From: a virus
Strand: one strand, 5' to 3'
DNA length: 64,000 nucleotides
Virus record (IMG/VR): IMGVR_UViG_3300029206_000002
In this document: in pieces, positions 1 through 61,836 of the stretch
How positions within the stretch are numbered: the stretch's first letter is position 1
How the letters are laid out: each line of letters starts with the position of its first letter
The notes under the pieces: generated by a model
What the model saw: only the letters and a program-made list of their open reading frames with translations
Databases searched by the model: none
Told to the model about the DNA's origin: nothing
Made by a program: the position numbers and the translations under genes

Positions 1-380
1 AATCAGGTAAAGTAGATAAGGTAGAAGGAAAAGAACTATCCAGTAATGACTTTACTGATGCATATAAAACTAAACTGGATGGTATTGCTGCACAAGCAAA
101 TAAATATGTTTTACCAACAGCTACAGCTGAAACTATTGGTGGAGTAAAGGTAGGAACAAATATTTCTTATAGTAATGGTACAATTAGTCTTAGTAAAGCT
201 AATGTGACTGGCGCATTAGGATATACACCTCCTACAGCAGATACTAAAGTGACTATAAATAACACTTTAACAAGTACTAGTACTACAGAAGCTTTAGCTG
301 CTGCTCAAGGTAAAGCTTTAAAAGATTTAATTGACGCATTAACTACAAGAGTTGCTGCATTAGAAACTCCAGCAGCTTAA
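1..380 (+). CDS. Tail fibre protein, C-terminal part of a gene that starts upstream of the window (frame 0). It ends at TAA 378-380.
   Basis: Open frame from the window start to TAA. It carries the repeat motif KANVTGALGYTPPTADTK, which recurs in the next gene, and a coiled-coil/fibre-like composition. Confidence 0.6.
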   Translation, partial: SGKVDKVEGKELSSNDFTDAYKTKLDGIAAQANKYVLPTATAETIGGVKVGTNISYSNGTISLSKANVTGALGYTPPTADTKVTINNTLTSTSTTEALAAAQGKALKDLIDALTTRVAALETPAA

Positions 381-394
381 TATAACAAATACAT

Positions 395-3300
395 ATGGTA
401 ACAAATAGGATAATATTTTTTGCAACATCTGTTCAACCTAATCCAGAAGAAATAGACTATTGGGTTGACTTATCTGATAATCCTTACGGTGGTAGCATTA
501 AATATTTCAATGGAACCGAATGGGTAAGGCTAGCTGCCTCTGGTGGTACACCTGACTTTAGCAACTACTATACTAAAACACAAGTAAACAAATTGCTTAA
601 TGATAAAGCAAACATTAGTGATGTAGATAGTAAAGTAGATGATGAAGAAGTAAAAGATGTAATAAAGGATATACAATTTAATACTTCAAATCCTAATGGC
701 ATTACTATGGTAATGTTTAAGTATGATGGAAGTAATGATTCTATATCTTTACCTATAGCATCTACTGGATCAGCTGGTATTGTCACATCTAAAGACTTCT
801 TAGACTTTGTTAAGCAGCATCAGTTGTAGGAACTTCATACTGAAATGATTGATACCTTTGCTGATATACGTGCAAAGTATTAGAAGAAACTCATTGCAGG
901 TTTAAACATTGAAATTGATCAAGAAACTAATGTAATTAGTGCATCTGGTGATCTAGCTGTACAATGGGATAATATTACTAACAAACCAGACTTTAAACCA
1001 GTAGCTACATCTGGTGATTACAATGATTTGATTAATAAGCTTAAGCCTGGTAAAGATGTTAGTATTAGTGAAGATAATACTATCAGTATTGCTATTGATT
1101 CAGATTCATTAGAACAGTCTTTAGCTACTTTACAAAGTAATATAGATAAGGAAGCTGCTACTGCTCGTGCTGCTGAAACTAAATTAGGCAACGATATAGC
1201 TACTGAGAAGAATAGAGCTGAATCTGCTGAATAGACTATTAGTACTAATTTACAGAATGAAATTAATAGATCTACTCAAGTAGACACGCAACATACTAAT
1301 GCTATAAACAAAGAAGTACAAGATAGAAAAGAAGCTATTGCTACAGAAGTTAGTGATAGAAATGCAGCTATCTTAGTAGAAACTAATAGAGCTAAGGCTA
1401 AAGAAGAAGAACTTGATAATAAGATTACAGATCATACTGCTGCAACTAATGCAGCATTAGCATTAAAAGCAGATAAGTCTGACACTTATACTAAGGCACA
1501 AGTAGATGCTAAATTATCTGGTGCTTATAAAGTAAAAGGATCTAGTACATTTGAAGCTCTACCTAAAGACAACAATGTAGTTGGTGATGTATATAATATT
1601 ACTAATGCGTTTAACTTAGGTGGTAAGCATTATGATGCTGGTACTAACGTAGTATGGACTGAAGATGGTTGGGATGCTTTATCAGGTTCATTTGATACTA
1701 CTGCTATTGAAAGTAGTATTCAAGAAGTAGCTGATGATTTAGCTCAAGAGATATTAGATAGAACTCAAGCTGATACTACTATCAATAACAATGTATCTTC
1801 ATTATCTAACAGAGTAAAAGTGAATGAAGATAAACTTACTATTATTAATGGTAATGAATCTACTACTGGTTCTATAGCTAATGCTATTAAACAGGCTAAA
1901 TCATATACAGATACTACTGTAACAGCTGAATAGACTAGAGCAGAGAAAGCAGAATAGAAACTAACTAGTGATTTAGCTAGTGAAATAACTAGAGCTAAAG
2001 GTGCTGAGTCTGCTAATGCTACAGCTATAGCAAATGAAGTAGAAAGAGCTACTGGTGTAGAAGAAGCTTTAAGAACAGATGTAGAAGATTTAACTGGTTA
2101 GGTATTAGTTCTTGAAAAGACTAAGGTTAATAAAGTTGAAGGTAAAGGTCTTAGTACTAATGATTATACTACTCCTGAAAAGAATAAACTAGCTGCTATA
2201 GAAGCTGAAGCTAATAAGTATGTATTACCTGCTGCTACAGCTAGTGCATTAGGTGGTGTTAAAATAGGTAGTAATATAACATTAGCAGATGGTGGTACTA
2301 TCAGTATAACTAAAGCTAATGTAACTAGTGCGTTAGGTGTAGATCCTACTACTACTTATGTGAAGAAAGCTGGCGATACTATGACTGGTACATTAACATC
2401 TGCATCTACTACTGGATCAATTGTATTTAAAGGCGTTGAAAATAGTGATATAACAAATATATACAAATCTGGTGGTAATTTATCTGAAGGTTTTGGTATG
2501 CATGCCAACGCTGATATCATTAATGGTTTGAGATTCAATTGGTATGATACATTTTGGTATATAGGTAATATTAGAGGTTCTGGTACAGAAAGTTACGGAT
2601 TTGGAATTGTAGATAATAATGATTAGATAGGTTTTAGGGTAACTACTGATGCAGTTTATGCAAATAAATACACATCTAGTGTATCTACCGGTAATGCTCC
2701 TATATCTGTTAAATCTACAACTATGTGTCCAAATCTGAATGCAGATATGGTAGATGGTGTTAATGTTAAAGATATTGAACATACATTATACATATCGTCA
2801 ACTGTTAAAAATTATTTAAAGATTTAGGTTAATCATAAGTATTTCCCCAATAGTTATAAAATTGTTGAATATTATGATGGCTACATTTATGTTTACTAGT
2901 TATTAATAAATGCTTATTCTCCAAAATTTACCGATCTTTAGCTCATTAGTGGAAAAGTACATACTGGAATTAAAACATTTTATGATTTGACTAAATGGTA
3001 TATAGAAACTACAGAATCTGGAATGAACATATACATATATCAACCTGAAAATAGTAATTTCAAAATATATGGAGTTATACATGGAGAACCTCAATCTCCA
3101 AATGTTCAATTTAGTGTTGTTAGTTCATTGCCTAGTAATGTAGTAAGTAGACATATTACATTCAATGTAACATCTTAGAATTTAGAAGAGTTTGATTGGT
3201 ATGGAGTATCTTGGTCAGAAACATCATCTAATCCAGATTGTATCCGTATTGGTAATATGGATATGCATAGATCATTGCCTATATAGAGTATGATGAAACC

Positions 3301-4408
3301 ATTTGCTTTTTAGACACAACCTTTGTATAAAGACTAGTTTGTTCCTTTGAAGGAAAACTTTACTGAAGCAATGTATGGGCATGTAAGTAATGGAGAAGCT
3401 GGATAGGTAGCATCTACAGTAAACGTTATGATTAAGATACCAGAATTTTGGTATGTCGATGATTATACTCCTGGTACAAAAACACACAATTTAAAAATAT
3501 GTCCACACGCTAAACCAGGATGGCATCACCACAAAGAAGCATATGTTAGCGCATATGAAGCATTCAACTTTGGTAATAAAGGTAGATTAATAAGTATGAA
3601 AAGCGTTGTTCCTACTGTTAATTTTACCAGAACTAATGGCAGAACTTGGGCTAGAGCTAATGGATTTGACGGAGAAGCTAAATGGAATCTTTATACATAT
3701 GAAGAACATAGAGCTATATGTCATTTGTTCTTAGTGGAATATGCTACTAGAAATTCACAAAAGGCTGTTAATACTGAACTAACTCCTGAAGGATTTAGAC
3801 AAGGTGGGTTAGGTTCTGGTTGTACTACAGGAACAGCAACTATCAACGGAGCTCAAACTTGGTCGTTTATTCCAACTGGAAGTTCTGATAGTTTAGGTAG
3901 TGGTTCTGGTGAAGTTACAGTAACTATACAATAGACTGATTCATCTGGTTCTAATACTTCTACTATTACACGTAAATGTAATAGATATAGAGGAATTGAA
4001 AATCCATTTGGTCATATATGGAAACACACGGATGATATAATTAGTATATACGAAGGCGACTGGAGAACTTATTATAAGTCTATAAAACCTGATCAATTTG
4101 CCACTAACAAAAATAATAGTTATAAACCTTTAACATCAGCAGCAGTTGTAACTGGTTATAAAACCGAAATTAGAGCTACTCCTACTTGTGATTTCTTCGC
4201 TGAAGCTTGTACTAATGGTTCAGAAACTACATACTGGTGTGATTATAACTGGGATAATACTGATACTTCAGAACACTGTTTGTTAATCGGTGGTGGCTCT
4301 GGCAGTGGCGGCGGGACGGGTCTGTTCGCTCTTCGTTCCGTTGCTGGGGTTGGTTATTCCGATGCTGATATCTGTTCTCGATTAACATATCTCCCGTGGG
4401 CGGAGTAA
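395..4408 (+). CDS. Large tail fibre or tail spike protein of 1,338 codons, read through about 16 in-frame TAG codons.
   Basis: ATG at 395. Track ORFs at 395, 1028, 2360, 2987 and 3428 all share frame 2 and are separated only by TAG. Read by eye, there is no TAA or TGA until 4406-4408. Fibre-type repeats are present (SKANVTSALGVDPTTTYVKKAGDTMTG, coiled-coil EQSLATLQSNIDKEAATARAAE). The C-terminus ends with a Gly-rich linker, GGGSGSGGGTGLFALRSVAGVGYSDADICSRLTYLPWAE. Confidence 0.75.
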
Positions 4409-4550
4409 TGACTTAATTATGCAATACGGTATAGTTAAGTAATACCCACAGGTTGCTTCTCTAGAATTGGGTTGGGTGTGCTTTGTTGGTTTTGGTGGGG
4501 GGGGGTGGGTTGGTGGCGCTGGACTAGCGGTTCGGTGGTGAAGTACTAAC
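4289..4550 (+). repeat. G/T-rich, adenine-depleted island spanning the 3' end of the fibre gene and the downstream spacer. It contains a G9 run at 4497-4505.
   Basis: Read directly from the sequence. The stretch gggttgggtgtgctttgttggttttggtgggggggggtgggttggtggcgctgg contains no A over roughly 55 nt, in a genome that is otherwise about 70% AT. Confidence 0.6.
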
Positions 4551-4571
4551 TACAAATATTATAGAAGAAAA

Positions 4572-4694
4572 ATGGCTAGCTATATAGGGTGGTTTAAACA
4601 CGCTAACTGTTATTCTTTACTTACTAAAACTATTAAACATAAAGAGCTATTAGATTACCTGGATATACGTAAAGGAAATAGAACATACGCATAA
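4572..4694 (+). CDS. Small hypothetical ORF of 40 codons (MASYIGWFKHANCYSLLTKTIKHKELLDYLDIRKGNRTYA).
   Basis: ATG to TAA open frame in a spacer. There is no other support. Confidence 0.2.
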   Translation: MASYIGWFKHANCYSLLTKTIKHKELLDYLDIRKGNRTYA

Positions 4695-5370: not shown

Positions 5371-5949
5371 ATGGCAGTGATTATCATTATGATTCTCGCT
5401 GCCATTTGTTTTTATTAGAATAACTAGCTAGATAAGAAGAATAGAGAACTAGATAGAGTAACTAATAACTATCTTTACTATGAATAGCTAGCAACATAGT
5501 AGAAGAATGATAATAGAGTTCTATAGCTTACTCTAGATGAATTTAAAGAAACCAAAGATAGCTTAATACAAGAAGTACAAGCTACAGTAAAGAAATTAAA
5601 GATCAAAGAGAAGGAGTTGAAATAGATACAGATATAGGAGTAGAAAGTAGTACACGATACTACAATAGTAGTTAGATCAACTGACTTTAAAGTAGAAATC
5701 AAACCAAACAATTTGACATCAATCATAATAAATAAAAGAGATACGCTCCTAACACATAGTATCGACATTCGCAATACACAATCACTATTTATTCATACTA
5801 AAAAAGAATATAAGCGTAATTATAAGAATTGGTTCTAGCGACTCCTTCACTTTGATTTTAAAAAACGAACTATTTATAAGTACCAAATTGATAACAGTAA
5901 CAAGTTAATCAATGTAGAAAATACTAGAATAATAGATTTATCAAAATGA
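5371..5949 (+). CDS. Protein with an N-terminal transmembrane helix followed by a long coiled coil, possibly spanin-like. It has 12 in-frame TAG codons.
   Basis: Stitched frame 1: MAVIIIMILAAICFY then a Q/K/E-rich heptad region. It stops at TGA 5947-5949, overlapping the next ATG in an ATGA arrangement. Confidence 0.5.
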
Positions 5950-6581
5950 ACTTTATAAGTCGAATAATTAAATCAATTAATGCAATGAGAGAAAGACTGA
6001 AAATAGAGCGTCATGAGGCTATGTATGGTCCACACTTTAATGAAGAATGTGCACTAAAAGCAGTCTCAAAGATGGAAAACGAAGATGGCTCTCGTGGAGA
6101 ACATTGGAGTTTAGAAGAAACTACTTCAATCGCTAACCAGTACGGAATCAATCTGAAAGGTGAGAAATACAACAAGTATGATTGGTACGTTGCTCTCAAT
6201 ATGATACGTTCAGACTATTATCGTGCAGTTGTTACTATGACAAGCAGTGATCACATTAAGTACTTTGTAGAACTAGCAAAAGCTTGGTTGAATGATAAAG
6301 ACATAGAAGAAGGAAAGATGTGGTATTACTATTGCTATATTATGTGTGATAAATTGCGCAAAGAAGCTAAGACGATGTTAATGCTTGAAGACGATGAAGA
6401 TGAAGAGCATGAGTATCGTTACGCTCGTAGTGGTAGAGGACGTGGAAGAGGTAGAGGAGGAAGAATGACTCGCTACGGTTATGACTATGACGAAGACGAT
6501 GAATATTTAGATCGTGAACGTGAAGAGGAAAGAATGCATAGATATGAACCTATGTATGAAAGAAGAATATCAAGATATTAA
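5946..6581 (+). CDS. Hypothetical protein of 211 aa with an RG-repeat and an acidic C-terminus.
   Basis: Intact track ORF ending at TAA. It contains SGRGRGRGRGGR. Confidence 0.5.
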   Translation: MNFISRIIKSINAMRERLKIERHEAMYGPHFNEECALKAVSKMENEDGSRGEHWSLEETTSIANQYGINLKGEKYNKYDWYVALNMIRSDYYRAVVTMTSSDHIKYFVELAKAWLNDKDIEEGKMWYYYCYIMCDKLRKEAKTMLMLEDDEDEEHEYRYARSGRGRGRGRGGRMTRYGYDYDEDDEYLDREREEERMHRYEPMYERRISRY

Positions 6582-6595
6582 TTTAATCAAAATTT

Positions 6596-7522
6596 ATGAG
6601 AACTATGTACGAACCTGAAAAAATTTTAGTACAAAACGCTGGTATAGATCCAGGTGTAGCTGCACTTTTGCAGAATGCAAACAAAGGTAATATGGACCCT
6701 GCTGCTCTTATGGCTATGATGAACAACGGCGGTTTCGGTGGAAACGGCGGTTGGTGGTGGATTTGGATCATCCTAATCTTCTTCTGCTGGGGCGGTTTTG
6801 GAGGCAACGGTTTTGGTAGAGGTAGTGATGATGCTAGTCGTCTTGCTTCTCAGTTAAATACTGATACTAATACAAGTCTGTTAATGCAGGCTATTCAAGG
6901 TAACAAAGATGCAATAAGCACTTTGTCTAATACTTTGAGTTGTGATATTAACGCTGTACAGACAGCTTTAAATACTATTAATACTAGCGTAAGTCAGATT
7001 GCTTGTGATACTAAATTAGCTAGCTGTGAAGTAATTAATGCTATTACTTCTGGTAATGCTAACTTGGCTTCTCAATTAGCTAACTGCTGCTGCCAGACTC
7101 AACGTTCAATTGACTCTGTTAATTTGAACTTGACTCAAATGAATGCAGACAATAGACTGTCTATCTGTCAGCAAACTAATACTTTGCAGAATGCAATCAC
7201 TGGTGGTTTCAATAACTTAATGACAGATAATGCTAGTAAGTTTAATGTAATTGGTGCTAAGATAGATGCGCAGACTCAAATGATTAACGATAAATTCTGT
7301 CAACTTGAAATGCGTGAAATGCAGAATAAGATTGACACATTGCGTGCTGAGAAGTCAGCTCTTGAATTAGGTCTGTCTCAATCTGCTCAAACTGCTAATA
7401 TAGTAAATCAGTTGCGTCCGTGTCCAGTACCTGCTTACTTAACTTGTAACCCATTCGGATGTAACGGTGGATTCACTGGTTACGGATACGGATATAACGA
7501 CGGTTGCGGTTGTAGTTGCTAA
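6596..7522 (+). CDS. Hypothetical membrane or structural protein of 308 aa with a Gly/Trp-rich transmembrane segment and Cys-rich termini.
   Basis: Track ORF containing GGFGGNGGWWWIWIILIFFCWGGFGGNGFG and ending in CNPFGCNGGFTGYGYGYNDGCGCSC. Confidence 0.5.
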   Translation: MRTMYEPEKILVQNAGIDPGVAALLQNANKGNMDPAALMAMMNNGGFGGNGGWWWIWIILIFFCWGGFGGNGFGRGSDDASRLASQLNTDTNTSLLMQAIQGNKDAISTLSNTLSCDINAVQTALNTINTSVSQIACDTKLASCEVINAITSGNANLASQLANCCCQTQRSIDSVNLNLTQMNADNRLSICQQTNTLQNAITGGFNNLMTDNASKFNVIGAKIDAQTQMINDKFCQLEMREMQNKIDTLRAEKSALELGLSQSAQTANIVNQLRPCPVPAYLTCNPFGCNGGFTGYGYGYNDGCGCSC

Positions 7523-37496: not shown

Positions 37497-37930
37497 CAAG
37501 TACAAGTATAATCAGAGCAAAAGTCATTTGACTTAAGCAAATCATCAAATTGATCTAAGTAGTCTTTCCAAATAACAACTAAATCTTTTACATCTAAATA
37601 ACTATCAGTAAATCTACCTTTTTTACAGAATTCTAATTCTTGTATTTTATCTTTACTAACTTTAAATGAAAAGACAATATAAGATTGTTTATTTATAGTA
37701 TAAGGAAACCAGTTATAATATGTTTTATTACAACTGATTTCCTCTATTTTTTTAGATAGTTCATAATGACTACTAAACTTATAAACTAAATATAATTTTC
37801 CTTCAGAATTGTCTCCTTTTAAATTTGTATACATATTTACAAATGCTGGACAATCAAAGTAAGATATCTTCGCTTCTATAAAATCACTTAAAAATATTAA
37901 GCATTTATTATAGTTTTTCAACACCATCAC
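37493..37930 (-). CDS. Hypothetical protein of 145 aa.
   Basis: Intact ORF. Confidence 0.5.
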   Translation of the reverse strand: MMVLKNYNKCLIFLSDFIEAKISYFDCPAFVNMYTNLKGDNSEGKLYLVYKFSSHYELSKKIEEISCNKTYYNWFPYTINKQSYIVFSFKVSKDKIQELEFCKKGRFTDSYLDVKDLVVIWKDYLDQFDDLLKSNDFCSDYTCTC

Positions 37931-38915
37931 CTTCGTAGTATTCTACTGAGTGATCCCATTGATCTGTACTGATATGATATGAAATTTTCTGTAAAGAATT
38001 GTTAATTAAATCAATTTTCTCACTGAGTATTTTATCATTTTTCATGTTAAACACTCTAATTTGATTTTCAGAATCTTTACCTATAGCAATAATATATGCT
38101 TCAAAATCATATTCTTCAGAATTAAGATTTAATATCTCTTGCATATACCATTGAATTGCTAATCCATAATAAGCAATTTGCCTATAATAATCGTATTCTT
38201 CTACTGAATGTGCAAAATCATAGACATTTACAGTAGTCTTTAAGTCAATTAGAATTATCTTCTTATTAACATGATCAAAACATACTCTATCTAGTAAAGA
38301 TTTACATTTAATATTATTGATTCTATTAACTTGCCAGTTAATATGAAATTCATTATGAGTTTCAAAAGTAGATGGTAAATTAAAAAGCAATTCATTTGCT
38401 TTCTTATGATTCTGAATATTTTCCTTAATCTTCTTAAGCATTTGTAAATCAGCAAAGCTAATTATCTTCTTATTATCATCTTTCTTACTCAAGTATTCTA
38501 AGTAATCTTGATAAATCATAATAAGACCTTCAGCTTCTTCAATACATTTCTCATCAGATTTCTTATTACTATAAGCTTTTTTATAAGCAGATAGTTTAAG
38601 CTTATCTTGAGATTCTAATGGATTTACTTGCATAAGTCTATGATACTCATCTAATAAATCCTTTTGCTGTTTTACTTTAGGTGTTGCAAAATCAAGAATA
38701 ATATAATCTTTCCAGAATTCGTCTGGTTGAAGTAAATATTCATGAATCATAGTTCCTTTTTCAAGAAAAGAAAAGTTCATTCCCTCTTCTTTTCCATCAA
38801 GCATATCACGAAAATACCTAGGACCTCTTTTAATAAACCATCCTATTGCAGAATTACTTACTCTGCTATTATCTTCGTAATAAGGAATACTAATATCCAT
38901 CTTATTCTTTAACAT
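37908..38915 (-). CDS. PD-(D/E)xK family nuclease (RecB/YqaJ-like exonuclease candidate).
   Basis: 335-aa ORF. The motif DRVCFDHVNKKIILIDLKTT fits the D...(D/E)xK core. Confidence 0.45.
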   Translation of the reverse strand: MLKNKMDISIPYYEDNSRVSNSAIGWFIKRGPRYFRDMLDGKEEGMNFSFLEKGTMIHEYLLQPDEFWKDYIILDFATPKVKQQKDLLDEYHRLMQVNPLESQDKLKLSAYKKAYSNKKSDEKCIEEAEGLIMIYQDYLEYLSKKDDNKKIISFADLQMLKKIKENIQNHKKANELLFNLPSTFETHNEFHINWQVNRINNIKCKSLLDRVCFDHVNKKIILIDLKTTVNVYDFAHSVEEYDYYRQIAYYGLAIQWYMQEILNLNSEEYDFEAYIIAIGKDSENQIRVFNMKNDKILSEKIDLINNSLQKISYHISTDQWDHSVEYYEGDGVEKL

Positions 38916-45488: not shown

Positions 45489-46256
45489 TCAGGCTGCACA
45501 CTCGTCTAAATAAATTTTATCCCAGTGAACTTTAATATCATTATTTTCATCGCTTTCTGCGATAACTATCTTCTTACCTCGTAAGTGAGGAGCTCTAGCT
45601 TCTCTTACTGAATTATCTCCACCTTCAAAAGATATAATAGTTTCATTCTTTTTACGATAGACATAACCAACAGCATCTGCTTCACCACATACTATATCAC
45701 CTAGTTTTCCTACTAAATCTAGTGCCATTTCTGATAATTCTTCTCCTTCTTTATTAATCATTTTTTCTTTAGTATGACCAATAAGAATAAAATTATCACA
45801 TAGATTACGAAACATATCTATTACTTTTCTAACTGCCATGCGAAGATACATATATCCACTACCATTTGGTAATGTACGTATATCATCTCCATTATAGGAT
45901 TTACCCATTGGAGTTTGACGATATAATACCTTAGCATAACCTAGACACATTTCTTCTAATCTAGTAGCATTATCTATAGCAATATATTTGTAAGGTTTGT
46001 TACCAGTTTTAGCTGCTTCTTCACCAATTGCTCTAGATATATTACCTAAGTCTTCAATAGTACGAGCTTGAATAGAGAGAGCTTCTAGAAATTCTGAACC
46101 TCCCTCTAAGTCTATAATAAGACAGTTATCAAGCTTTGATAATAAAGTAGTTTTACCTGATTTAGGTCGACCAAACAAGATTAAGAATCTTGGATTGTTA
46201 ACCTTTGGTTTGTTTTTCTCTTTTGGTAGTATTAACATATTAAAATAGGTTAACAC
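45489..46256 (-). CDS. RecA-fold ATPase, Sak4/AAA_24-like recombination or replication protein.
   Basis: Walker A FGRPKSGKTT near the N-terminus, a short IIDLEGG motif, and a size of about 255 aa. Confidence 0.5.
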   Translation of the reverse strand: MLTYFNMLILPKEKNKPKVNNPRFLILFGRPKSGKTTLLSKLDNCLIIDLEGGSEFLEALSIQARTIEDLGNISRAIGEEAAKTGNKPYKYIAIDNATRLEEMCLGYAKVLYRQTPMGKSYNGDDIRTLPNGSGYMYLRMAVRKVIDMFRNLCDNFILIGHTKEKMINKEGEELSEMALDLVGKLGDIVCGEADAVGYVYRKKNETIISFEGGDNSVREARAPHLRGKKIVIAESDENNDIKVHWDKIYLDECAA

Positions 46257-56213: not shown

Positions 56214-57929
56214 TTACTTTTTAGTAGCATACGCAGATTTCTCAATATAGAAAGTAAGAGGATTCAAAGAGGTTGATGTGTACAAGCTAGATACTTTCTG
56301 CATTACTTGTTTCAACATCTTGTCATTCATTTCTGCTCCATAAGCAATCCGCAGATTGTTTACAGTCTTTATTGCTGAAATGTGTTTACCTTTAAGATTC
56401 AGACCCTTGATTTCTGGATATACAAGTTTGTCTTCATCTTTACCTTCGTTATTAGCAGAAGTAATAATACGATTGATCAGATCGTCATTAGTTCCACTAA
56501 TTAATTGAGAATACCGTTTTGCTTCTTCTTCGTAGTTATTGTTTTTTGCAGTTTCATCAGCAATCTTCTTAGCTAAGAATACTTTCACAACATTAGCAAC
56601 TTGCGCATCGTTGTATGTTGTTAATTGATTCTTAAGCCAAGCATGAGATGCTAAAACTGACAAATTACCAGTTAAATTACCCCAAATAGCATTCGCACAA
56701 CCTTCAAGCAATGTAGCGTTTCGTCCTGCTTCCTTCATCTTAAGTAATACAGTTGCTAATACTTGTGCTGGTTCTGCATCTTTGTCAAGTTTATAGGCTT
56801 CCCGTGCAAATTCAATCATATTTGCTACGTTCTTACCTATACCTCCTGACTTCTGCTTGTGTCGCATGTTCATAATAGTACACATTGCTGCTACTTTCTG
56901 TTCATCTGTGACACATTCTTCAGGTTTTGGCATTTCCTGAGTCTGCGGAACTTTAGCATCTTGTTCTAAAGCTTTTTGCATTTCAGGATTTGTCTTTGCG
57001 ACAGCATCTTTGAAGTTAATCTCGAGCTGTCCATCAGATGTTTTGCTAGGAAGCAAATTAACACCGAGGAACAAAGAAGCTGTTTCATTCAAATATGCAA
57101 ACATTTCTTCGTTCACAGTAAAACCTTGTTCTTTTGCATCATTCTTGAACTGGTCATTCCATTTCTGAATTAATACAAACATCATAAGGTCTGCCTGTTT
57201 TCCTGTTGCTTGATACATTGCCCGATCATCTTTAATCTCTTCACGGCGTTTCAGAATTGCGTTCATCAAATCTACTGAGTGATTTGCATCAATTCTGTCA
57301 CTGTTCTGAGTTACAATGTTGGGCGCAGGAGCTGCGGCTGTTTTAATAGTAGGAGTATTGTTGATGTCAATTTCTTCAGCTTCTACTTCTTCTATCTTCT
57401 CCTTCTTCGACTTCTGCTGTTTAGGTTTCTTTTCAGTAGATGCGGGTTTAGGATCTTCCTTCTTTGGTTCTTCAACTGGTTTAGTTTCAGGAACTTTAGC
57501 AGGAATAGGATTCTTAATTCCTTCCTTAATCCGTTTAACGTCAATTCCGTCTCCCTTCTTTACATTAGATACTGGGAAGAGGACACTAGTAGTTTCACTA
57601 GTTTCGTTGTTCTTCCACTCGGCTTTGATATTTTCAATGCCTTTACTGTCTTTCTCAATCTTAAGAGAAAGTAGACTCATATACGGTGATTTTGTGCACA
57701 ACATATGAGTTTCATATGCTGATTTACCCATTGGAGTCTGATAAACGCCGCCTTTCTTTCGTTCAGCTGGTTTCTCTTCAGGCTTCTTTTCTTCTGGTTT
57801 AGAATCTTCTACTTTTGTTGTTTCTACTTTAGCTGAAGCTTCTACTGCTTCTTTAGCTTTTTTCAAAGCTTCTAAGTTTCTTGCTGCTTTTGCACTTGGA
57901 GTCTTTCCACCTTTATTTCTTTTTGCCAT
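56214..57929 (-). CDS. Hypothetical protein of 571 aa with a Lys/Glu/Pro-rich low-complexity N-terminal half.
   Basis: Intact ORF. Confidence 0.5.
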   Translation of the reverse strand: MAKRNKGGKTPSAKAARNLEALKKAKEAVEASAKVETTKVEDSKPEEKKPEEKPAERKKGGVYQTPMGKSAYETHMLCTKSPYMSLLSLKIEKDSKGIENIKAEWKNNETSETTSVLFPVSNVKKGDGIDVKRIKEGIKNPIPAKVPETKPVEEPKKEDPKPASTEKKPKQQKSKKEKIEEVEAEEIDINNTPTIKTAAAPAPNIVTQNSDRIDANHSVDLMNAILKRREEIKDDRAMYQATGKQADLMMFVLIQKWNDQFKNDAKEQGFTVNEEMFAYLNETASLFLGVNLLPSKTSDGQLEINFKDAVAKTNPEMQKALEQDAKVPQTQEMPKPEECVTDEQKVAAMCTIMNMRHKQKSGGIGKNVANMIEFAREAYKLDKDAEPAQVLATVLLKMKEAGRNATLLEGCANAIWGNLTGNLSVLASHAWLKNQLTTYNDAQVANVVKVFLAKKIADETAKNNNYEEEAKRYSQLISGTNDDLINRIITSANNEGKDEDKLVYPEIKGLNLKGKHISAIKTVNNLRIAYGAEMNDKMLKQVMQKVSSLYTSTSLNPLTFYIEKSAYATKK

Positions 57930-61734: not shown

Positions 61735-61762
61735 ACTTTTTGTTTTTAATTTTGATAATTTG

Positions 61763-61836
61763 TAATACTAATAGGACTCGAACCTATAACTCAACCTTAT
61801 CAGTGTTGTGATGTTACCCGTTACATCCATAGTATT
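61763..61836 (-). tRNA. tRNA-Ile (anticodon GAU), 74 nt.
   Basis: A cloverleaf was folded by eye. The acceptor aatacta/tagtatt is a perfect 7 bp. The D-arm is gatg-taacgggtaa-catc with GG. The anticodon loop is ctGATaa. The T-arm is atagg-ttcgagt-cctat. There is one A.G mismatch at the base of the anticodon stem. Confidence 0.7.

Follow-up and report, generated by a model that had tools for sequence, protein, structure and literature searches.

Introduction

Among prokaryotes and their viruses, no natural targeted protein hypermutators are known other than diversity-generating retroelements (DGRs), which are also under development as tools for mutagenesis. The field generally assumes that the template is protected from its own complementary DNA (cDNA). 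The mechanistic paradigm is the DGR of Bordetella phage BPP-1. According to a report on this DGR, in which cDNA is synthesized from TR RNA and which consists of Mtd with its variable repeat (VR), avd, the template repeat (TR), and the reverse transcriptase (RT) gene brt, mutagenesis is adenine-specific and occurs in minus-strand cDNA synthesis, and transfer is unidirectional from TR to VR (PMC5703328). The cassettes of crAss-like phages are arranged as target gene (TG)-VR, with an initiation of mutagenic homing (IMH) element, -TR, with IMH*, -RT, and have no avd, as three reports describe (Morozova et al. 2020, PMC7290462; PMC11054128; PMC12386605). The first of these accepts Avd-less cassettes as crAss-like DGRs (PMC7290462). 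According to all three (PMC7290462; PMC11054128; PMC12386605), alpha, epsilon, and delta (Suoliviridae) crAss-like phages often carry cassettes whose RT is truncated or deleted, whether or not a TR is present. In DGRec, where the BPP-1 DGR is combined with a recombineering annealing protein in E. coli, it was reported that 'the dgrRNA locus overwrites itself' at rates similar to those of the target, and that a G at position +1 lowers mutation by bRT (bioRxiv 10.1101/2025.03.24.644984). Here, I analyzed a stretch of 64,000 nucleotides (nt) of viral DNA (IMG/VR record IMGVR_UViG_3300029206_000002; hereafter, the window), in which an A-poor noncoding island of 72 nt downstream of a tail-fibre gene is very probably the overwritten template locus of a DGR. 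All coordinates are those of the window unless a locus label is given; ~33 kb of the genome lies outside it.

The noncoding island aligns with the leader and TR of related phages

The DGR-intact relatives (cr6_1 and MT835473) have the full VR-TR-RT cassette. Loci of related phages are labelled L001, L002, L003, and so on. An A-rich TR lies ~200 nt past the fibre gene and matches the last ~100 nt of that gene, and the mismatches between the TR and the VR are essentially all at TR adenines; for example, the 100 nt compared in L001 contain 27 mismatches at A sites and 1 at a non-A site. In 64 pooled VRs, 70% of the A sites are substituted, and 3774 of 3904 non-A positions are identical. The full-length cr6_1 RT matches Pfam RVT_1 (E = 2.6e-19) and has the motifs PIGNYLSQ and YADD. 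No open reading frame (ORF) lies between the fibre gene and the RT gene, and cr6_1 has no Avd annotation. Judging from the adenine-confined TR/VR mismatches and the DGR-type RT motifs, the locus of these relatives is a DGR without Avd.

After the conserved ...CTCTAGAATT, the relatives continue with AGAACGAGTATGCATTATTAGTTTTAAGTAAAAAAGTAGTAAC..., in which a leader of 23 nt precedes the TR. At this place, the window has GGGTTGGGTGTGCTTTGTTGGTTTTGGTGGGGGGGGGTGGG... instead. It was found that all 8 adenines of the leader part are replaced (8/8), and that the first 27 nt of the island align without a gap, with 12/12 adenines replaced and 14/15 non-adenines kept. The whole island (4469-4540) was aligned to L001 1996-2062 and L002 4982-5049 by an A-aware global alignment. 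Replacement affects 26-27 of the 28-29 template adenines (A>G 19-20, A>T 5, A>C 2, A kept 1-2). Among the non-adenines, 34 of 37-38 are unchanged and 3-4 are mismatched, and the alignment has 8-9 gap columns. The A-aware score is 57-66 versus 20-24 (standard deviation (sd) 8) for shuffled islands (z ~4.5-5), and it becomes negative if C, G, or T is set as the mutable base. The TR-derived part of the island fits the MT835473-type TR variant best, and the run of nine G residues (G9) in it derives from the A6-7 G run of the TR.

Since the leader has no VR counterpart, the tract was not copied from a VR; its source must be the DGR RNA itself, copied with mutagenesis of the adenines. This bears on the idea that the island arose without cDNA, by VR-to-TR gene conversion or recombination or as a TR/VR assembly chimera. 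TR and VR are indeed direct repeats with ~210 nt between them, the phage is highly recombinogenic, and the TR-locus tract of L089 is close to its own VR, as is a central block that L075 shares with its own VR. However, the replaced leader adenines have no VR source, the island keeps TR-type bases (for example, TAGC versus the TGGC fixed in 62/64 VRs), and the allele lies in the interior of many contigs, so that I regard such an origin as extremely unlikely.

Substitutions in the island are 73% to G, 19% to T, and 8% to C, versus 63%, 17%, and 20% in the 64 pooled VRs, and the two spectra are indistinguishable (chi-square p = 0.26-0.29). The retention of adenines is lower in the island (1-2 of ~28 versus 28% in VRs; Fisher p = 0.002-0.01), which suggests either more than one round of mutagenesis (~93% adenine loss versus ~70% in VRs) or the lack of selection that keeps adenines in VRs. 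The dominance of A-to-G (19-20 of 26-27 changes) might be expected from an adenosine deaminase acting on DNA or RNA, or from local error-prone repair. Such an agent other than the DGR RT is very improbable, because A>T (5) and A>C (2) are present and deamination gives neither, because the tract is confined to the DGR RNA region with untouched adenines at 4409-4468 and from 4541, and because the spectrum matches that of the VRs.

The window has 35% A and 31% G+C. In a sliding count over the 64 kb (mean 25.1 A per 72 nt, sd 5.4), the two lowest-A segments were 4469-4540 (2 A) and 4289-4360 (3 A). The A-poor composition of both is real and far beyond chance, as the original prediction from the letters alone had it; the G9 run that it had noticed lies at 4497-4505 and is the sole G or C homopolymer of 7 or more in the window, and the peptide that it had assigned to the C-terminus of the fibre does end the fibre, with ...LIGGGSGSGGGTGLFALRSVAGVGYSDADICSRLTYLPWAE*. 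It had drawn one continuous island at 4289-4550 with a noncoding extension of 150 nt. There are instead two blocks, a coding block up to ~4377 (block 1) and the noncoding block of 72 nt (block 2, the island), separated by ~90 nt of ordinary sequence, of which 4409-4448 is 37.5% A.

The same prediction had read the region as G/T repeats with G-quadruplex potential and had considered horizontally acquired host-like DNA. Tandem Repeats Finder returned 0 repeats in 4250-4600, and a regex scan of both strands of the whole window found no canonical G-quadruplex (four tracts of three or more G, loops of 1-7 nt), only a variant with a 20-nt loop at 4469-4509; both readings were rejected. The proposal of host-like DNA does not agree with the alignment of the two blocks, in register, with the relatives' own VR and leader/TR. 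More generally, a functional element (G-quadruplex, recombination hotspot, or regulatory signal) or horizontally acquired GC-rich DNA could account for a composition that is extreme in a 31% GC genome, for the persistence of the allele at ~12%, and for its polymorphic G-run length, but it is very unlikely in view of the base-by-base derivation from the relatives' leader and TR and the lack of a canonical G-quadruplex, tandem repeat, terminator, or distinctive fold in the island. The island probably has no present function.

A deletion removed the rest of the TR and most of the RT gene

The window matches the relatives up to 4493 (L001 2020) and again from 4542 (L001 3136). What lies between these points measures ~1.1 kb in the relatives but just 48 nt in the window. 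The mutagenised tract ends at TR position ~44, where it adjoins GAAGTACTAAC, the commoner form of RT codons ~292-295; the junction GAAGTAC matches the commoner RT-gene polymorphism AAAAGAAGTAC, which was found in 17 loci. The features of the locus are summarized in Table 1.

Table 1. Features of the DGR locus and two further genes in the window
Feature	Position	Strand	Remarks
Tail-fibre (DGR target) gene	395..4408	+	1337 codons, TAG read as sense codon; homologous to cr6_1 'tail protein'
Variable repeat (VR), A-poor block 1	4278..4377	+	Corresponds to TR L001 2019-2118; variable sites ~4288-4373
VR-specific 3' flank and fibre stop	4378..4408	+	Putative IMH region, weak hairpin CTCCCGTGGGCGGAG
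Ordinary intergenic spacer, fibre gene to DGR leader	4409..4468	+	All adenines intact; near-identical to DGR-intact relatives
Adenine-mutagenised TR leader copy	4469..4491	+	Corresponds to L001 1996-2018; ungapped, in register directly after AGAATT; no VR homologue
Adenine-mutagenised copy of first ~44 nt of TR	4492..4540	+	Several small indels; contains G9 run 4497-4505
Deletion junction	4540..4541		~1.07 kb lost: rest of TR, spacer, RT codons 1-292 (L001 ~2063-3133)
DGR RT gene remnant	4542..4694	+	Last 50 codons (4542-4691) and stop; 100% identical to cr6_1 RT residues 293-342
PD-(D/E)XK exonuclease homologue	37908-38900		
Sak4-like single-strand annealing protein gene	45489..46256	-	63% identity, 247 aa, to cr6_1 'Sak4-like ssDNA annealing protein'

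No other RT was found in the window by tblastn with the cr6_1 RT. No TR was found there either, by an ungapped adenine-tolerant scan or by gapped short-word blastn, the best matches being A-rich stretches at ~44.2 kb; all that the window retains of the TR is the mutagenised 5' ~44 nt. Thus, the window has neither a TR in cis nor an intact RT, both of which an active DGR requires. The absence of a template repeat and an RT was part of what the original prediction had named as refuting it. It is formally the case within the window but misleading, since the last 50 codons of the RT gene remain and the relatives show the deleted part. The suspicion that the receptor-binding tip is hypervariable was well founded: the VRs of 64/64 related loci differ, at TR-adenine positions. 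The suggested remnant of a DGR was likewise right, although the two blocks had been treated as one and a mutagenised template locus in the noncoding block had not been foreseen.

The island segregates as an allele

Is the island common among related phages? The exact island was found in 7 viral contigs, besides variants, and the island is present in 8 of 65 metagenome loci, which were retrieved with a pattern having every leader adenine as a wildcard. In summary, 15 of 126 related loci (12%) have the island allele, and it is interior to 15-16 independent contigs with long flanks from two collections. The copies have the same substitutions and the same junction, and differ only in G-run length (7-10) and a few single-nucleotide polymorphisms (SNPs). 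Thus, the allele has a single origin. The island-bearers are non-monophyletic in the 1.2 kb upstream, where the fibre divergence reaches 30%, and in three downstream segments. Thus, the island behaves as a segregating allele of a population that recombines freely, in which new VRs can be acquired by recombination. Some island alleles have further changes. In L059 and L060, CTCTGGAATT replaces CTCTAGAATT, with an extra A-to-G just 5' of the island boundary (the equivalent of 4464). Most island alleles have ACTGGC, and the window and L025 keep ACTAGC, so that the SNPs within the allele are again at residual adenines. These changes may stem either from a blurred boundary of the original tract or from events after it.

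The VRs beside the island are varied. Varied VRs beside a dead DGR would need recombination or a supply in trans. It may be that the DGR is not dead for this genome and that its VR is still rewritten. The TR and RT would then lie in the ~33 kb beyond the window or be provided in trans by DGR-intact relatives that co-infect, and the island would be a by-product in a genome free-riding on the retroelements of others. The supply of TR and RT in trans reportedly works experimentally in Bordetella phage BPP-1. In the present case, the VRs of the island genomes differ at TR-adenine sites, the VR 3' flank with the putative IMH is intact, and 4/13 island VRs have no non-canonical change. I nevertheless consider continued rewriting unlikely. 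The canonical TR core is present in 52 other contigs but in no island-bearing viral contig, including the five with lengths of 96-99 kb. Among the matches listed, none of the at least 47 contigs with an RT at least 90% identical bears the island. With mosaic flanks on both sides and non-monophyletic bearers, recombination alone can explain the varied VRs, and one island pair has an identical VR. Moreover, island-side VRs have more non-canonical changes (median 2 versus 0 beside intact cassettes; at least one in 9/13 versus 39/93; Mann-Whitney p = 0.006), as expected of less frequent refreshing, for which they provide modest evidence.

A frozen VR was also tried as proof of a dead DGR. It failed, since the VRs are varied and the flank phylogenies show that recombination confounds the comparison. 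No pair of island genomes with identical flanks and different VRs, which would have pointed to trans-homing, was present in the sample. The VR of the window itself has two changes at near-invariant sites, GCG to ACG and, at TR position 96, GGT to TGT (4313-4318 and 4371-4376). The latter gives TGT (Cys) in ...ADI[C]SRLTY, versus GGT (Gly) in 63/64 VRs. These two odd changes are consistent with a VR that is no longer overwritten.

Adenine-only patches in intact cassettes

I found that several cassettes with an intact RT have patches of clustered adenine-only changes in the leader or the 5' half of the TR. In L073 (3 A-site changes) and L132 (2), the patch is confined to the leader. L100 has 4 such changes, well inside a contig of 14.9 kb, and L029 (6) and L010 (the same as L120; 5) have theirs close to contig ends. 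L075 has ~23, plus a 7-nt deletion. Variable sites of the leader and TR comprise 41 of 47 A positions and 17 of 76 non-A positions (p = 8e-13), and the flanks have no such bias. Self-mutagenesis of the template thus appears to be recurrent, which is likely but not proven. The tracts of L089 and part of L075 were rejected as clean evidence for the re-entry of cDNA, since they resemble their own VRs, as judged from the sequences by eye. In a second crAss-like lineage, whose RT is ~60% identical, the 31 loci were too heterogeneous for a useful alignment.

A possible route from an active to a dead cassette

With high probability, the DGR was destroyed in cis: adenine-mutagenised cDNA was written back into the locus that it came from, and a deletion then took what remained of the TR together with most of the RT gene. 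The starting point would be a DGR of the architecture target/VR-TR-RT without Avd that diversifies the fibre tip. DGR cDNA can run on upstream of the TR. The DGR RT, the presumed agent of the adenine loss, would copy its own RNA and run beyond the 5' end of the TR into the leader, and the mutagenised cDNA would enter the donor (TR) locus and not the VR. Nearly all adenines of the leader and of the first ~44 nt of the TR would be lost in this way, giving a G/T island in which the A-run becomes G9. A Sak4-like protein (Table 1) may take part in writing the cDNA into the template locus; the phage also encodes a resolvase.

The deletion of ~1.07 kb, by which the TR remainder, the spacer, and RT codons 1-292 were lost, may have happened in one of two ways. 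It may have been part of the same aberrant event, in which the 5' end of the cDNA was joined illegitimately to a break in the RT gene, as in a target-primed-like reaction. Alternatively, it may have been a later, unrelated deletion once the template was exhausted. No adenine is altered on the right side of the junction, and therefore the right end does not come from a bridging cDNA with a homology arm.

Several observations weigh against this account. In its TR-derived half, the island departs from a clean copy, since 8-9 gap columns and 3-4 non-A mismatches are needed there, and the low adenine retention of the island fits a single ordinary cDNA pass poorly. Neither an island without the deletion nor a deletion without the island was found among the loci. 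Different VRs in island-bearing genomes are at first sight contrary to the frozen VRs expected of a dead DGR, except in the one identical pair. As for the patches, the A-site enrichment drops to p = 0.058 without L089 and L075; L089 and part of L075 may result from VR/TR exchange, given the likeness to their own VRs; and the patch alleles L010, L029, and L073 are near contig ends.

A wider reading joins the island with the patches. The DGRs of wild phages would recurrently 'burn' their own template via run-on cDNA, whose 3' ends are homologous to the donor locus alone and would therefore be written back there. Without a master copy, this would be a one-way ratchet toward template exhaustion and loss of the RT, and the RT-less alleles would persist at ~12% on VRs from DGR-intact kin. 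I propose it only tentatively, with somewhat less than even confidence.

The VR, the fibre gene, and the phage

Block 1 corresponds to the TR in register, and compared with the cr6_1 TR, which has 39 adenines here, the window VR keeps 7 and has 21 changed to G, 7 to T, and 4 to C, with 2 mismatches at non-A sites. Block 1 is therefore recognizable, by its pattern of substitutions, as the hypervariable fibre tip written by a DGR. In the first 64 related loci, every VR is different. The TR/VR homology stops at GTTC, and beyond it the VR 3' flank differs from the TR 3' flank. The VR 3' flank of the window is identical to that of the DGR-intact relatives, and an anchor sequence inside it is present in 64 viral contigs; its role as IMH is putative. 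The hairpin CTCCCGTGGGCGGAG predicted there does not stand out from shuffled sequences (z = -0.4). The promoter scan gave nothing distinctive either, with a weak sigma-70-like match at 4408-4435.

A strong context effect was seen in the VRs of the window and of L001-L069. TR adenines directly 5' of G (TR positions 12, 15, 30, 33, 38, 41, 70, 75, and 96) are G in 56-64 of the 64 VRs. The effect holds at synonymous sites, with GCA changed to GCG in 61/64 and the third base of AAA changed to G in 63/64; by contrast, a 4-fold site in an AT context has A34/G16/T1/C13. The bias of A before G toward G looks like a property of the RT and not of selection.

The closest database relatives of the window are cr6_1 (NC_055894; Suoliviridae, Afonbuvirus; 93%) and MT835473 (97%). 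By these matches, the window belongs to a gut crAss-like phage of the Suoliviridae near Afonbuvirus cr6_1. In cr6_1, the gene order is tail protein, reverse transcriptase, and holin. Frame 2 of the window is open at 395-4408 with 16 in-frame TAG, 0 TGA, and a single terminal TAA at 4406-4408, and a standard-code ORF list breaks the fibre gene into fragments. TAG is probably read as Gln in the fibre gene, because the conserved Q of the SQ motif (IGxxxSQ) in the relatives' RT is encoded by TAG. Late genes on the + strand use TAG as a sense codon, with 16 occurrences in the fibre gene, and the RT gene of the relatives (L001 2260-3288) also contains many; early genes on the minus strand (~37.9-61.7 kb) are intact ORFs under the standard code. 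No suppressor tRNA was found in the window, where the only tRNA is tRNA-Ile (61762-61836); cr6_1 carries a tRNA-Gln, the presumed suppressor, outside the region homologous to the window.

A Pfam search of the fibre tip gave no match, and a PDB sequence search gave no significant match. The tip has the motif G-G-x-x-x-x-G-x-x-G-L-F ... G-S-R-L, which I take to resemble VRs of the C-type lectin (CLec) type. The body of the fibre gene is extremely mosaic (~1-4300 compared with L003-L069, 1.2 kb upstream of the VR), with pairwise divergence up to 30%, and the downstream genes of the same phages differ by just 1-3%. This contrast points to frequent exchange of fibre modules by recombination.

Other observations concern the rest of the window. 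The ORF at 5946-6581 (+; 211 aa) has an RGRGRGRGG repeat within a very acidic tail rich in Asp, Glu, and Tyr, and its counterpart in cr6_1 has the annotation 'RNA polymerase sigma factor/ubiquitin-like protein'. The next one, at 6596-7522 (+), encodes a 308-aa protein with a Cys-rich C-terminus (GCGCSC), homologous to the 'spike/virion structural protein' region of cr6_1. A segment of this protein rich in Gly, Trp, and Phe, GGFGGNGGWWWIWIILIFFCWGGFGGNGFGRG, is encoded by a second G+C-rich, A-poor patch at ~6600-6900, whose lowest 72-nt count is 8 A (6730-6801) and which is not DGR-related as far as examined. The next most A-poor 72-nt segments on the + strand (6-7 A), 57397-57468 and 57753-57824, are inside the minus-strand ORF 56214-57929 and are T-poor in the coding sense.

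Implications and comparison with known systems

Surveys report many 'incomplete' cassettes whose decay is unexplained, and this locus offers a plausible way for an active cassette to become a dead one. It is a natural, datable example of template overwriting, and an unselected readout of the error spectrum and cDNA extent of a crAss-type RT. If the recurrent burning of templates is true, the island is a selection-free cDNA fossil in which the cDNA reaches at least 23 nt into the leader and the raw RT errors amount to ~70-93% substitution, ~75% of it to G, with A before G read as G; fresh VRs would come to the RT-less alleles via recombination or trans-homing. In a freely recombining population with ~88% intact and 12% dead cassettes, the costs and benefits of a DGR and possible free-riding are measurable from existing gut metagenomes. 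Under the standard code, annotation pipelines would overlook the fibre gene of 1337 codons as well as the RT.

In the literature searched, I found neither a natural template remnant bearing the DGR's own mutational signature nor an account of how DGR cassettes decay, and TR self-mutagenesis is known there from engineered settings only. Doulatov and colleagues reportedly observed in 2004 that an IMH*-to-IMH swap in BPP-1 also made the TR a homing target.

The relatives analyzed here share with the described crAss-like DGRs the fibre gene with its VR, the TR, the RT, and the lack of Avd, as well as an RT with the GxxxSQ motif and amber suppression. They differ in what is recorded: the passages searched in those papers give the presence or absence of the parts, and an adenine-mutagenised remnant of the template and leader was not found in them. 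As in DGRec, mutagenised cDNA would re-enter the DNA that codes for the template with the help of an annealing protein, and the present phage encodes a Sak4-like protein and an exonuclease. In contrast to DGRec, this is a natural allele in wild phages, its tract is biased to the leader and the 5' half of the TR, and it is coupled to the loss of the RT. The context effect is also opposite to that of bRT, since A followed by G is here almost always read as G. Adenine-specific mutagenesis is common to BPP-1 and this system. Unlike BPP-1, the cassette here has no Avd gene and is carried by a virulent-type, TAG-recoded, AT-rich phage, and the substitution of VR adenines is ~70% with a strong G bias, versus ~30-40% reported for bRT. 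In comparison with these systems, the VR part of the locus is ordinary, and the island is not a new system but a mechanistically informative fossil of a known one.

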